DNA from: Corallococcus aberystwythensis
GTDB lineage: Bacteria > Myxococcota > Myxococcia > Myxococcales > Myxococcaceae
Length of the DNA stretch: 32,310 bases
Direction: 5' to 3'
NCBI RefSeq assembly: GCF_003612165.1
Contig: NZ_RAWK01000089.1
Coordinates: forward strand, 1-32,310
Of the stretch, positions 12,740 through 18,569 are shown piece after piece (position 1 is the first letter of the stretch; each line of letters starts with the position of its first letter). A model generated the notes under the pieces. It had not been told where the DNA came from and ran no database searches. It saw nothing but the letters and a program-made list of their open reading frames with translations. A program made the position numbers and the translations under genes.

Positions 12740-14254
12740 TTAACGCGCCCGTGAACGCCGCCGGGCCCGTAAGCACCCGCCGAGCAGCAGCGCGACGAGC
12801 GCACCGGCCAGGGGGCCTCCCGCCGCCTGGCAGCCCCCGTCATCGGCGGGCGTCCGTGGATCATCAATCGGATCCACAGGCCTGCCCGCGTCGACGGTGC
12901 CCGCGTCCTGCGCTTCAAGTGGCGCGCAGGAGGCGGCCTGACCCGTGGCCGCGATGCACAGCCGGCCATAGCGCCCCAGGCCTTCCATCCGGCCATCCAC
13001 GACCGCGACCACCACGCGCGTGGCGCCGCCCGCTGCCACCTGGGCTCGCAGCGCGTCCGGCCCGTCCGCGGTCACCACCCGCAGCACGGCGGTGTCCGTG
13101 ACGGCCGCGAGGACCAGGTGCAGCGCGGCCGGGTCGGTGCCCGGCTCGGGCTCGAAGGACGCGCCCACGAAGGACGCGCCACCGGGGACCTCGAAGAGCC
13201 GCGAGGCCGCCGCCGCGACGCGCACTCGCTCCTGCGCATGGGGCAGCCCTACCGATGTCGTCGTCACCGGTGCATAGCCCTCGCCTCGCGCGTAGCCGAA
13301 CCCTGTCGTCGCGCGGGGGCCGGTGCCCAGGTTCCAGGTGGCGAACAGGGCGAAGGCCGCGTCGAAGCTGGAGGCGAAGTCGCGGCGCAGGCAGGTGTCC
13401 AGCAACACCGGCCAGCGGGCCTCCGGCTGCCGCACGGACTCCTCCAGCAGCGCGAGGAGCACGCCGTCGCCGTAGCGCTCGCCGAGGAACTGGAAGAAGA
13501 GCCCCGCGCCGTAGCTGAAGGCCACGCCCGGCCCCGCCGGGTCCAGCGCCAGCGTGCTGTCCGGGGTGAGCATGTAGCCGCGAGTGAAGCCCTCCAGGTC
13601 GTCGAGCGCGGGCTCGAAGCGCTCGGTGGCCCAGACGGCGGTGCCCTCGGAGGCGATGCTGCCCAGGCCGGGCCGGTAGGCGGCCTGCACCGCGTGGAAG
13701 AACTCGTGGCTGGCCAGGGTGTCCACGGCCTCGGCGTCGGACGGGTAACCGTAGCCCGCGAAGTCGTTCTCCTGGAGCATGAAGCCCGTGCAGCGCGTGA
13801 CGCCGTCCAGACAGGTCTCCTGCCGGAAGGCGCCGTCGCCAATCCTCGCGAAGTCCACCAGGTACACGTCGAAGCGGCCGTCGCCGCCGTCGTCCCCGGT
13901 TGGGTTCGTGTCGTCAGGTGGCAGGCGGAAGCCCAGGCCCGCGTAGAACGTCGCCACGCGTTCGTAGGTGCTGGCGACGCGCTCCACGAAGTCGGGCACG
14001 CCGCTGCCATCCGCGTCCGCCGCGGGCACGGCGTGGGGACCCTGGCGGGTGAAGTGGATGCGGAAGCGCTCGCCCGGCGACACGACGGACTCCACCGTGT
14101 CCTCGGGCTGGTAGCGCGGCGCGGGCGCGGCGGGCGAGGTGGGCCGCCCGGACCCGGCGGCCAGCCCCACCACGGCCTCTCGCTCGTGCGGCAGGCCTCG
14201 CGGGGTTCCCGCGCCGGCCAGCAGCAGGAGCAGCGTGGGAACCCCGGCGGTCAT
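12740..14254 (-). CDS. secreted HExxH zinc metallopeptidase with MYXO-CTERM sorting tail
   Basis: Start taken at MTAGVPTLLLLLAGAGTP (signal peptide) at 14254; the track ORF extends to 14446 through the upstream gene. HEFFH motif (ASHEFFHAVQ). The C-terminus GGCQAAGGPLAGALVALLLGGCLRARRRSRAR matches the MYXO-CTERM pattern (Cys/Gly, hydrophobic stretch, Arg-rich). The start overlaps the upstream stop by 1 nt (TGATG). Confidence 0.75.
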   Translation of the reverse strand: MTAGVPTLLLLLAGAGTPRGLPHEREAVVGLAAGSGRPTSPAAPAPRYQPEDTVESVVSPGERFRIHFTRQGPHAVPAADADGSGVPDFVERVASTYERVATFYAGLGFRLPPDDTNPTGDDGGDGRFDVYLVDFARIGDGAFRQETCLDGVTRCTGFMLQENDFAGYGYPSDAEAVDTLASHEFFHAVQAAYRPGLGSIASEGTAVWATERFEPALDDLEGFTRGYMLTPDSTLALDPAGPGVAFSYGAGLFFQFLGERYGDGVLLALLEESVRQPEARWPVLLDTCLRRDFASSFDAAFALFATWNLGTGPRATTGFGYARGEGYAPVTTTSVGLPHAQERVRVAAAASRLFEVPGGASFVGASFEPEPGTDPAALHLVLAAVTDTAVLRVVTADGPDALRAQVAAGGATRVVVAVVDGRMEGLGRYGRLCIAATGQAASCAPLEAQDAGTVDAGRPVDPIDDPRTPADDGGCQAAGGPLAGALVALLLGGCLRARRRSRAR

Positions 14255-15204
14255 CACGGCAGCCAGGCCCACCGCAGGCGGATCGACCCCGCGCTGGCCG
14301 TCGAGCTCACCATGCCCGTCGTGTTGCACTCCTCCTGCACCGCGGGCTCGTAGAAGTCCCTGACCTGCAGCTTCACGTGACGGCCGTCCGCCAGTTGGAC
14401 GAGGTAGACCTTGTTCGTCATCTGCAAGCAGCTGGCGTAGTCCCAATACGAGAGGGTCTGGGTCGCCGGGCTCTGGAGGCCAAACGAGTCCCCGGTGAAC
14501 GTGCAGGTGTCGGGGGTGTAGTAGTTCTCCGCCTGGAACTGCGCCTCCGAGGGCACGGCCGTCACCGCTTCGAACGTCGTGCCGTCAGGCGTCTGCGACA
14601 CCGTCACGCACGACGGCCCGGACACGCCGCTGTTGAAGCGAACGACGTACCGGCGCACCGCGACATCCCACGCCGTCGAATCCAGCGAAGCCTGGTCATC
14701 GATGTAGACCTTCTCGAGCCCCGTCGCAGTGAAGCGCGCGTAGGTATACGAATCCGGCACGCTGGTGCCACCTCCGCGGCCGTCCAGGAACGTGAGGTAC
14801 TCGCCCTGCGTCGTGCCTTCCTCCACCACGCCACCGTCGGAGACGGCCGAGCGGAGCCGGAGCTTGTCGATGCTCTGCTCCGTGCAGGCCACGGCGTTAC
14901 GGCACAGCTGCGCGCCAGCGTCCGCGGTCGTGCCCGCGTCGGTGGGCGTGCCCGCATCGGTCTCCGTGCCCGCGTCCGTCTCGGGCTCGTCCGGCGTCAG
15001 GGTGTGCAGCTCGCACTTGTTGTCCGCGTTGCAGGCCCAGGCCTGGCCCGCCGGGGCCACGCCATTTTCGCGGCAGTCGAATGCGTCCACGCACTCGTCG
15101 CTGCTGCACCCCGACACCACCGCGGCCAGCGCGAGGGCCGCCAGGGCCCCCATGCCGAACCACCGCGCGCCGCTCTTCCGGACCACCCCTCCAGGGTTGC
15201 TCAT
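14254..15204 (-). CDS. lipoprotein (hypothetical; possibly HmuY-like beta fold, unverified)
   Basis: Signal plus lipobox (MGALAALALAAVVSGCSS). Asp/Thr/Gly-rich linker (TDAGTETDAGTPTDAGTT). AAGGTGA SD upstream of the ATG at 15204. The stop overlaps the start of the downstream metalloprotease (TGATG), so the two are translationally coupled. Confidence 0.7.
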   Translation of the reverse strand: MSNPGGVVRKSGARWFGMGALAALALAAVVSGCSSDECVDAFDCRENGVAPAGQAWACNADNKCELHTLTPDEPETDAGTETDAGTPTDAGTTADAGAQLCRNAVACTEQSIDKLRLRSAVSDGGVVEEGTTQGEYLTFLDGRGGGTSVPDSYTYARFTATGLEKVYIDDQASLDSTAWDVAVRRYVVRFNSGVSGPSCVTVSQTPDGTTFEAVTAVPSEAQFQAENYYTPDTCTFTGDSFGLQSPATQTLSYWDYASCLQMTNKVYLVQLADGRHVKLQVRDFYEPAVQEECNTTGMVSSTASAGSIRLRWAWLP

Positions 15205-15252
15205 TCGCCGTCACCTTTCGCCGCGGAGCCCCGCGTTCATCGAACGGTGACG

Positions 15253-15300
15253 ATCTCTAATCGATAACGATTATCATTTTCAATATCGCCCACCCAATTT
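15253..15300. promoter_or_regulatory. AT-rich island with nested palindromes (AATCG-ataa-CGATT / GATAA-cga-TTATC) between the MVP and lipoprotein genes
   Basis: tctctaatcgataacgattatcattttcaatatcg is strikingly AT-rich for this roughly 70% GC window. It lies immediately 3' of the MVP stop and about 50 bp upstream of the lipoprotein start. It is a candidate promoter/operator for the lipoprotein-protease pair. Confidence 0.3.
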
Positions 15301-17655: not shown

Positions 17656-17711
17656 CAGTCAGGCGCTGCGCCGGACTGGCGCGGACGCTCGCTCCATTCC
17701 GGTGCGTGCGC

Positions 17712-17726
17712 CGTTCCAGATTGGAA
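17712..17726. promoter_or_regulatory. palindrome GTTCC-agatt-GGAAC (copy 2; extended CGTTCCAgatTGGAACG)
   Basis: Same half-sites and the same 5-nt spacer as copy 1, with centres 71 bp apart. It lies about 95 bp upstream of the Cys-rich lipoprotein ATG at 17820. Confidence 0.4.
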
Positions 17727-17819
17727 CGACCAGAGCGCCGGGGTTTCTCCGTATTTGCTCCAGACAGGCACGCGGGGCGCCATGACGGCGCCCGCCCTGC
17801 CCCACCCGGAGACATCCCC

Positions 17820-18569
17820 ATGCATCACCCCTCGCGGCTTGCGTCGTCATTCCTCGTGCTTGGACTCATGGGAGGCGTGGGCTGCGGCCCTGCCCTGGAG
17901 GAGACGCCCGTTCCCGAAGCCGCTCCCCAGGAGCAGGCGCCCGTCGCTCCGTCGGAGGACGAAGACCGCGCCGTCACCGCCATGTCCACGACGGCCATCG
18001 CCTGGAACGACTTCGGGAAGACGACGGTGCAGTACGTGGCCGAGTGCGTGACCGGGGCCTACTACCACTCGTGCTTCTTCTGCGGGACCAACTCGCTCTA
18101 CTCCGCGGAGTACAGCCTGAGCGACTGCACTTCGATTGGCGACATCCAGAACTCCTGCCTCACGTGTGACCGAGAGGTCCACGCCAAGACGGTCTACGCC
18201 GAGCTGCCCGACGGCGACGTCATCCTCGCGGAGATCGACCACAACATCGTGGCGTCGGACGTCATCGAGTTCCGGCTTCAGTCCGGTTCCGACGTCACGT
18301 GGTGGAAGGAAGTGAACCTCGTGGGCGGCGGGGACAACTGGCGCGTGTGGAACCAGGACGGCAGCTCCTGGTGCAACTGGCCCAATCCCTCCACGAACAA
18401 CTGCGACACCAACTCGCAGTGGACGCACATCGTGCAGGACCCGAGCTCGCGCTTCATCTTCAGCAAGGCCAAGTGGTTCGGAATCCACACGGAGATGTAT
18501 TCGCTGGGCGGCCTGGGCGACCACCTCACCGGCGGCGACCGCGTGACGTTCCGCTGGATCCGCGACTGA
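17820..18569 (+). CDS. Cys-rich lipoprotein (hypothetical)
   Basis: ATG at 17820 gives MHHPSRLASSFLVLGLMGGVGCG (lipobox). About 14 Cys in the mature part and a Trp-rich C-terminus. The track ORF extends upstream to 17706. Divergent from MVP. Confidence 0.7.
   Translation: MHHPSRLASSFLVLGLMGGVGCGPALEETPVPEAAPQEQAPVAPSEDEDRAVTAMSTTAIAWNDFGKTTVQYVAECVTGAYYHSCFFCGTNSLYSAEYSLSDCTSIGDIQNSCLTCDREVHAKTVYAELPDGDVILAEIDHNIVASDVIEFRLQSGSDVTWWKEVNLVGGGDNWRVWNQDGSSWCNWPNPSTNNCDTNSQWTHIVQDPSSRFIFSKAKWFGIHTEMYSLGGLGDHLTGGDRVTFRWIRD

Follow-up and report, generated by a model that had tools for sequence, protein, structure and literature searches.

The locus described here lies on a contig of Corallococcus aberystwythensis (32,310 bp, 69% GC), the whole of which is referred to below as the window, and whose major vault protein (MVP) homologue and protease are 100% identical to NCBI entries from this species. 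Three genes run in series on the minus strand, in the order given by an earlier sequence-only reading: the MVP homologue, a lipoprotein of the HmuY fold and a zinc metalloprotease of the MXAN_6640 family (Table 1). MVP and the lipoprotein gene are separated by exactly 96 bp (15205-15300), and the TGA of the lipoprotein gene shares one nucleotide with the ATG of the protease gene at 14254 (ctg ccg TGATG acc), as had also been read. A Cys-rich lipoprotein gene, correctly placed by the same reading, diverges from MVP. The arrangement had been taken to suggest a functional envelope-associated module; our comparative analysis supports the lipoprotein and the protease as a coupled pair, under a predicted Fur operator, and separates from it both MVP and the Cys-rich lipoprotein.

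Table 1. Genes and sequence elements around the HmuY-like/protease pair, in positions of the window.
Feature	Position	Strand	Remarks
Fur box (predicted operator)	15263..15281	-	GAAAATGATAATCGTTATC; 17/19 identical to the classical E. coli consensus GATAATGATAATCATTATC
Conserved 28-nt non-coding block	15261..15288	-	CGATATTGAAAATGATAATCGTTATCGA; contains the Fur box and a -35-like hexamer, TTGAAA
Predicted 5' untranslated region (5'-UTR) stem-loop	15209..15252	-	12-nt inverted repeat enclosing a GCGG/CCGC hairpin; Shine-Dalgarno sequence AAAGGTGA (15211-15218) covered by its 3' arm
HmuY-fold lipoprotein	14254..15204	-	316 aa; lipobox VVSGC, Cys-rich N-terminal extension, TDAG-repeat linker, C-terminal HmuY domain
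MXAN_6640-family zinc metalloprotease	12740..14254	-	504 aa; M30-like gluzincin catalytic domain, beta-sandwich like pre-peptidase C-terminal (PPC) domains, MYXO-CTERM-like tail
HEFFH zinc-binding motif codons	13694..13708	-	residues 183-187; from the translation and invariant columns
MYXO-CTERM-like sorting tail	12743..12835	-	residues ~474-504: GGCQAAGG, hydrophobic helix, RARRRSRAR
MVP homologue	15301..17580	-	759 aa, GTG start; neighbour of the operon, outside it
Cys-rich lipoprotein	17820..18569	+	ATG at 17820; 249 aa, 9 Cys; divergent from MVP, variable neighbour outside the operon
ChW-repeat (clostridial hydrophobic W) protein	11729-12580	+	between the protease gene and a convergent hypothetical gene
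LysM protein with VgrG3-like C-terminal domain	8577-10283	-	just past the cassette

The neighbourhood of MVP was compared across 80 loci with 10-kb flanks, collected by scanning an MVP alignment against one genome per species (GTDB), with neighbours identified by tblastn using the neighbouring proteins of the window. The pair follows MVP in six of the 80 loci (L005, L006, L007, L014, L019, L020), or 7 of 81 counting the window, and all six are Corallococcus: C. praedator, C. terminator, a metagenome-assembled genome (MAG), C. exercitus SDU142, C. carmarthensis and Corallococcus sp. RDP092CA. Five further Corallococcus loci (C. exercitus AB043A, C. interemptor, C. coralloides, Corallococcus sp. 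CA053C and C. sicarius) lack it at MVP and have, straight after MVP, the genes that border the cassette in the window; it is also missing at all 12 other myxobacterial-type MVP loci (Archangiaceae isolates and related MAGs, among them Hyalangium, Vitiosangium and Archangium) and at all 57 MVP loci of cyanobacteria and other phyla. The idea that MVP homologues always co-occur with the pair is contradicted by these counts.

Two of the pair-less loci retain traces of its former presence. C. interemptor (locus L002, 12271-12400) keeps the left edge of the block that holds the Fur box, TCGATATTG, followed at once by the terminal ~75 nt of the protease gene, which code for the MYXO-CTERM tail, and in C. 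exercitus AB043A (locus L001, 12274-12340) the terminal ~25 nt of that gene are left; the breakpoints differ, which points to independent deletions of an ancestral cassette. Corallococcus sp. CA053C carries an intact cassette of Fur box, hmuY-like gene and protease gene on a contig other than that of its MVP (RAWA01000385, locus L086, 3185-5843; homologous to window positions 15309-12755), where it adjoins nrfA/nrfH-like cytochrome genes and a gene for a TonB-dependent receptor (TBDR) with a Fur box of its own. The left end of this cassette, TTCCGCACTGA, is similar to the final codons of MVP and hints at a relocation from an MVP-adjacent site. In Hyalangium versicolor, too, MVP and the pair are on different contigs. 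From these sequence comparisons, the adjacency of MVP and the pair looks ancestral within Corallococcus; it has been broken repeatedly, with MVP surviving throughout and, in CA053C, the pair as well.

It would be very hard to reconcile these data with the view of a single co-selected envelope module made up of MVP, the HmuY-like/protease pair and the divergent Cys-rich lipoprotein, for example a vault-like particle linked to surface proteolysis. Such a module is suggested by the three co-directional genes, by the 96 bp between MVP and the lipoprotein gene with no terminator-like site in between, and by the recurrence of the arrangement in six other Corallococcus loci, apparently as the ancestral state of the genus. 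However, the pair is absent beside MVP in 74 of the 80 loci, five of them Corallococcus; the independent deletions and the one relocation left MVP and the relocated cassette intact; and H. versicolor and CA053C keep MVP and the pair on separate contigs. Neither the Cys-rich lipoprotein at this locus nor any other gene beside MVP is conserved across lineages. MVP has no signal peptide and in eukaryotes is a protein of a cytoplasmic particle, which also speaks against an envelope function shared with its neighbours.

The separation is equally evident from the side of the protease. A set of 88 protease-centred loci was assembled from eight genome contexts (two strains of Myxococcus, and Archangium, Polyangium, Hyalangium, Corallococcus CA053C, Stigmatella and Minicystis) and from 80 metagenome loci found by a scan with the protease alignment, and no MVP homologue occurs in any of them. 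In all eight genome contexts, which include M. xanthus DK1622, Archangium violaceum, Polyangium aurulentum, H. versicolor, Stigmatella erecta, Minicystis rosea and CA053C, an HmuY-like gene of 260-340 aa lies directly upstream of the protease gene, usually with a 4-nt overlap and in otherwise unrelated surroundings; the Polyangium gene has no precomputed Pfam match, yet its product is 42% identical to the window protein (E = 2e-56). In the metagenome the HmuY-like gene ends at the protease start in 59 of the 66 loci with enough upstream sequence, and its 3' part is seen at the contig edge in 8 of the 14 with too little. In 10 of the 88 pair loci, the flank includes a gene closely homologous to that of the Archangium TBDR. 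By gene order and sequence, then, the lipoprotein and the protease are a coupled unit of their own, found throughout Myxococcota.

The sequence-only reading had also singled out the spacer between MVP and the lipoprotein gene as unusually AT-rich and palindrome-bearing, with the only such AT-rich island of the window at 15253-15300, which was expected to hold a promoter or operator. The 48-nt GC minimum of the spacer (15239-15286, 33% GC) is indeed the lowest in the window (mean 69%, standard deviation 6.6), with the next lowest at 42%, and the palindrome is a 19-bp match to the Fur box, so that the island can be identified, as a prediction, with a Fur operator. The box is the sole site in the window with ≤3 mismatches to the consensus and was found in 0 of 100 dinucleotide-preserving shuffles; the lipoprotein ATG follows 59 nt downstream of it, and the MVP stop codon precedes it by about 20 nt. 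With this one box in the whole window, none stands upstream of MVP, and the predicted regulation of MVP and of the pair therefore differs. The presence of a 19-bp Fur box in the promoter region marks the pair as a predicted Fur-regulated operon, for which Fur binding and iron-dependent repression would be expected.

Conservation of the box follows the pair and not MVP: all MVP loci with the pair have it, and none of those without the pair does. In the seven Corallococcus loci with the same gene order, no other part of the spacer is as well conserved as the surrounding 28-nt block, CGATATTGAAAATGA(T/G)AATCGTTATCGA, which has a single variable base and is kept even in Corallococcus loci where the lipoprotein is only 52-56% identical. 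Fur boxes lie just upstream of the orthologous hmuY-like genes of M. xanthus DK1622 (TTGAATATGAGAATCGTTATCAATTA), H. versicolor (TGAGAATCGTTCTCA) and S. erecta, and of the relocated cassette of CA053C, which has retained the whole 28-nt block. In A. violaceum a similar box (L083, the Archangium locus, at 3647) heads a longer operon in the order DUF6607-TBDR-HmuY-HmuY-M6640. Fur-box-like sites were also noted before DUF6607 in Hyalangium (locus L085, 10530) and before the TBDR gene in CA053C (L086, 8026-8050). Given such sites upstream of DUF6607 genes, DUF6607 is a candidate member of the same putative iron regulon.

The founder of the protease family, MXAN_6640 of M. xanthus, and its HmuY homologue MXAN_6641 show the same two-gene order and the same families as the window pair, and the two proteases are 60% identical. 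The M. xanthus pair is located elsewhere in the chromosome, where it adjoins an alkylresorcinol cluster and an ABC transporter and MVP is not in the vicinity; MXAN_6640 retains a lipobox Cys that the Corallococcus proteases lack, and the Corallococcus lipoprotein has a Cys-rich, TDAG-repeat N-terminal extension in addition to what it shares with MXAN_6641. Both M. xanthus proteins are biochemically uncharacterised, and a full-text search found no main-text mention of MXAN_6640 or MXAN_6639; the relevant data are in the supplement of PMC9548883. According to Table S2A of that study, MXAN_6641 and MXAN_6640 are upregulated at 2 h and 6 h of predatory co-culture (log2 fold changes 2.57/2.47 and 2.38/1.64), together with other iron-uptake genes including those for myxochelin and heme uptake. 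The same table lists MXAN_6641 as an HmuY homologue with a "putative Fur box, Altmeyer 2010", the Fur evidence being the iron-limited proteome and the Fur pull-down of Altmeyer 2010 as cited there.

The palindrome might instead serve a different regulator of the Fur family (Zur, PerR or Mur-like) or an AT-binding protein outside that family, in which case the operon would answer to zinc, manganese or peroxide. The boxes of the Fur family are alike, being AT-rich inverted repeats of the 7-1-7 or 9-1-9 type, M. xanthus has several Fur paralogues, and the protease is itself a zinc enzyme. This alternative appears improbable in view of the 17/19 identity specifically to the Fe-Fur consensus, the similar boxes upstream of TBDR genes in CA053C and Archangium, and the putative Fur box and co-induction with myxochelin and heme uptake genes listed for the M. 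xanthus orthologue (PMC9548883, Table S2A).

Between the Fur box and the lipoprotein start codon, the spacer also encodes a predicted 5'-UTR stem-loop of marginal energy (minimum free energy -25.3 kcal/mol, z = -2.0). It is conserved in eight Corallococcus sequences, with no compensatory change in any pair, and could be either a translational control element or merely a stabilising hairpin, its status being uncertain. An Rfam scan of the whole window gave no match, and the spacer is therefore not a known riboswitch or small RNA.

The identity of the lipoprotein, for which an HmuY-like assignment had been offered as a question, is supported by sequence and structure. It matches the Pfam family HmuY (PF14064) with 52 bits, well above the gathering cut-off of 27, and its AlphaFold2 model, with a predicted local distance difference test score of 80.4, has the all-beta HmuY fold. 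All significant structure matches of this model were to HmuY-family proteins (BfrB, HmuY, BF2707, BVU_2192, BfrC, Tfo and PinO), with 12 chains matched and a best E-value of 5.5e-9 (TMt 0.72). The myxobacterial subfamily is distinguished by six invariant Cys residues, the motif WDIAFRRY.IR.NSGVSGPSC and one invariant Met (M262). As regards a hemophore-like linkage, the lipobox VVSGC is present and a TBDR is encoded in the A. violaceum operon, with none in the window. In Corallococcus the HmuY-like proteins carry an extra N-terminal segment (window 14900-15110, residues ~33-100) in which five Cys (CSSDECVDAFDC...C...C) precede tandem repeats of (E/P)TDAGT, and this segment is missing in other genera. 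A PDB match of the TDAG repeats to the linker of a GH114 protein was discarded as spurious, being due to the repeats.

The protease, read earlier as a secreted HEFFH zinc enzyme with a MYXO-CTERM tail, was identified as a member of the MXAN_6640 family: it scores 243.8 bits against NCBIfam NF045524 (MXAN_6640_HExxH; cut-off 140) over 289 of 290 profile positions and carries the HExxH motif. H183, E184, H187 and E203 are invariant in 42 protease homologues, and the enzyme is therefore a gluzincin. Residues 339-436 form a beta-sandwich resembling pre-peptidase C-terminal or collagen-binding domains. A MEROPS assignment, which had been left to be made, does not come out in sequence terms, as the protein is not a sequence member of M30 (Peptidase_M30) and falls into NF045524 instead; no PDB sequence match was found, and the fold search alone was informative. 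Lugdulysin and hyicolysin, the M30 enzymes of Staphylococcus, are only 12-13% identical to it, and the window protease has no Pfam match at E ≤ 0.01. Unlike these secreted Gram-positive enzymes, the Gram-negative window protease adds a PPC-like beta-sandwich and a MYXO-CTERM tail and is predicted to be surface-anchored. The Cys motif, hydrophobic helix and Arg-rich end of this tail are visible, its best matches are all tails of MYXO-CTERM proteins, and C475 is nearly invariant in the family. In the N-terminus the Corallococcus proteases read LLLLL(A/T)GAGTP where the rest of the family has, with few exceptions, a lipobox (L..GCG or ACG); Corallococcus appears to have lost the Cys of the N-terminal lipid anchor and kept the MYXO-CTERM tail.

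Taken together, with a probability of roughly 0.75 we read the region as two independent units, MVP on one side and on the other a separate, probably Fur-repressed hmuY-like/protease operon for iron or heme scavenging. The MVP homologue would be expressed from its own upstream region, which has no recognisable Fur box, and the hmuY-like and protease genes, in that order, from a promoter/operator within the 96-bp spacer. When iron is plentiful, Fe-Fur would occupy the box, which overlaps the TTGAAA resembling a -35 element, and prevent transcription; expression would follow under iron shortage. The products of the operon would be bound for the cell envelope, the HmuY-fold protein being N-terminally lipidated and the protease exported and, probably through its MYXO-CTERM tail, retained at the surface. 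Their most likely job would be iron or heme scavenging, in which the M30-like zinc protease degrades hemoproteins or iron proteins of prey or the environment, and the lipoprotein captures the freed ligand and passes it to a TBDR, encoded elsewhere in Corallococcus and in the same operon in Archangium. The adjacency to MVP would then have arisen by chance in the ancestry of Corallococcus and been lost since, several times through deletion and at least once through relocation. Fur binding, the surface localisation, the substrates of the protease, the binding of heme or another iron ligand and the hand-over to a receptor are steps that we infer; a role of the pair in iron or heme acquisition is plausible because of the Fur box, the TBDR linkage in some genomes and the co-induction with iron-uptake genes during predation.

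Several observations weigh against this account. Distant metagenomic pairs (37-46% identical), beyond the Myxococcaceae/Archangiaceae-like loci, have no E. coli-type Fur box at ≤5 mismatches; since such a box occurs only in the loci nearest to Myxococcaceae/Archangiaceae, Fur control may be clade-specific, or the operator may have diverged in the distant pairs. In a scan of 12500-18000, neither a consensus sigma-70 promoter nor, between MVP and the Fur box, an intrinsic terminator was called, and some read-through from MVP into the pair may occur. The cognate regulator and its metal are named from motif similarity, as myxobacteria encode several Fur-family regulators. The MYXO-CTERM tail scores just under both curated cut-offs (TIGR03901, 17.8 vs 20; TIGR03382, 15.4 vs 15.85), and the Corallococcus proteases are without the lipobox Cys of the rest of the family (window 14180-14254). 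With regard to the ligand, none of the His positions is invariant in 38 members of the HmuY subfamily and M262 is the sole invariant Met, while some HmuY homologues use Met pairs as axial heme ligands; in addition, the segment with His134 and His166, the axial ligands on the finger loops of Porphyromonas gingivalis HmuY (3h8t), did not align to the subfamily profile, and a different set of ligands may be in use. Because of the missing invariant His and the unalignable ligand segment, heme binding by the lipoprotein is to be regarded as hypothetical.

The same ligand evidence leaves some room for a different function, in which heme has no part: the pair would be a metal-regulated system of surface proteolysis, the lipoprotein serving as substrate recruiter, chaperone or inhibitor of the M30-like protease in predatory or nutritional proteolysis, and iron limitation being a mere cue for the presence of prey or competitors. 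Besides the absence of an evident conserved His/His or Met/Met pair, the tight translational coupling across the phylum is typical of physically cooperating proteins, predation induces the M. xanthus orthologues, the flanks of most pair loci are free of a TBDR and the distant pairs have no recognisable Fur box. We nevertheless consider this function unlikely: the characterised HmuY-fold members are all hemophores or porphyrin binders, a TBDR, a second HmuY paralogue and a Fur-boxed DUF6607 gene are linked to the pair in Archangium and other loci, and control through a Fur box is a hallmark of iron acquisition genes.

The scavenging operon favoured here finds a close parallel in HmuY/HmuR and the gingipains of P. 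gingivalis. The window lipoprotein is likewise a putative surface lipoprotein of the HmuY fold (Foldseek E 1e-7 to 3h8t), iron-responsive control is shared, as predicted here, and the logic would be the same, a protease freeing heme for a hemophore. Like HmuY with its TonB-dependent receptor HmuR, the myxobacterial pair is TBDR-linked in the Archangium operon. The differences are no less clear. There is no TBDR in the window; the partner gene in the window codes for a zinc metalloprotease, not a receptor, and the gingipains are cysteine proteases encoded elsewhere; and the heme ligands His134/His166 are not conserved in the window lipoprotein. A wider and distinctly more tentative proposal would be that the pair represents a Myxococcota-wide system of a protease and a hemophore-like binder, switched on under iron limitation by predatory myxobacteria and stripping prey proteins of heme or of another ligand that carries iron, with a ligand chemistry unlike that of the known His/His or Met/Met HmuY sites.

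The remaining genes of the region are neighbours of the operon. The MVP homologue has the vault repeats followed by the shoulder domain, all above the Pfam gathering thresholds: MVP_shoulder (PF11978) scores 153 bits (cut-off 25; 3.3e-45), and the four Vault repeat families (Vault, Vault_2, Vault_3 and Vault_4) are matched too, the scores being 108 bits for PF17794, 104 for PF01505, 73 for PF17795 and 26.4 for PF17796 (cut-off 22.9). It thus possesses the full set of vault repeat and shoulder domains known from bacterial MVP homologues and eukaryotic vaults. MVP homologues of Myxococcales, Oscillatoriales and Cytophagales have already been described (bioRxiv 10.1101/872010; PMC3762200), and the window protein is, on its domain content, a member of the described myxobacterial group, a vault-like particle being putative; no paper was found that pairs the terms "major vault protein" and "myxobacteria". 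Nothing new on MVP itself comes from the window; no neighbour is conserved across the 80 loci. Clustering of all open reading frames (ORFs) ≤6 kb from MVP in these loci, which was examined for a conserved partner gene, returned only generic sensor-kinase domains and antisense shadow ORFs.

The divergent Cys-rich lipoprotein has no Pfam or NCBIfam match and belongs to a rare family (140 representatives at E ≤ 1e-3). It is without a counterpart beside MVP at the other loci, except for a weak partial match (42%) in C. interemptor. The ~120 aa at its C-terminus form a recurrent module, found in fusions with tyrosinase, B_lectin, PASTA/Ig and astacin-type metalloprotease domains, and are therefore probably a binding domain. 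Downstream of the protease gene, the ChW-repeat gene was found in the window genome only, the other Corallococcus loci having no gene there; its local GC content is lower (62-67%), and it may be a recent insertion. The gene just past the cassette, which codes for a protein with LysM and a C-terminal domain like that of the type VI secretion system protein VgrG3 (peptidoglycan hydrolase), is kept in most Corallococcus loci.

For the bacterial vault protein, these results remove a tempting lead, as its gene neighbourhood here offers no clue to its function. For the known and so far uncharacterised pairs of the MXAN_6641/6640 type they give a clearer picture, consisting of a predicted operator, an M30-like protease fold, an HmuY fold without canonical heme ligands and an occasional linkage to a TBDR; of note are the constancy with which an M30-like protease accompanies the HmuY-like protein and the lack of those ligands. 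Iron or heme piracy during predation, if this is what the pair serves, would be directly testable in M. xanthus, where genetic tools exist.

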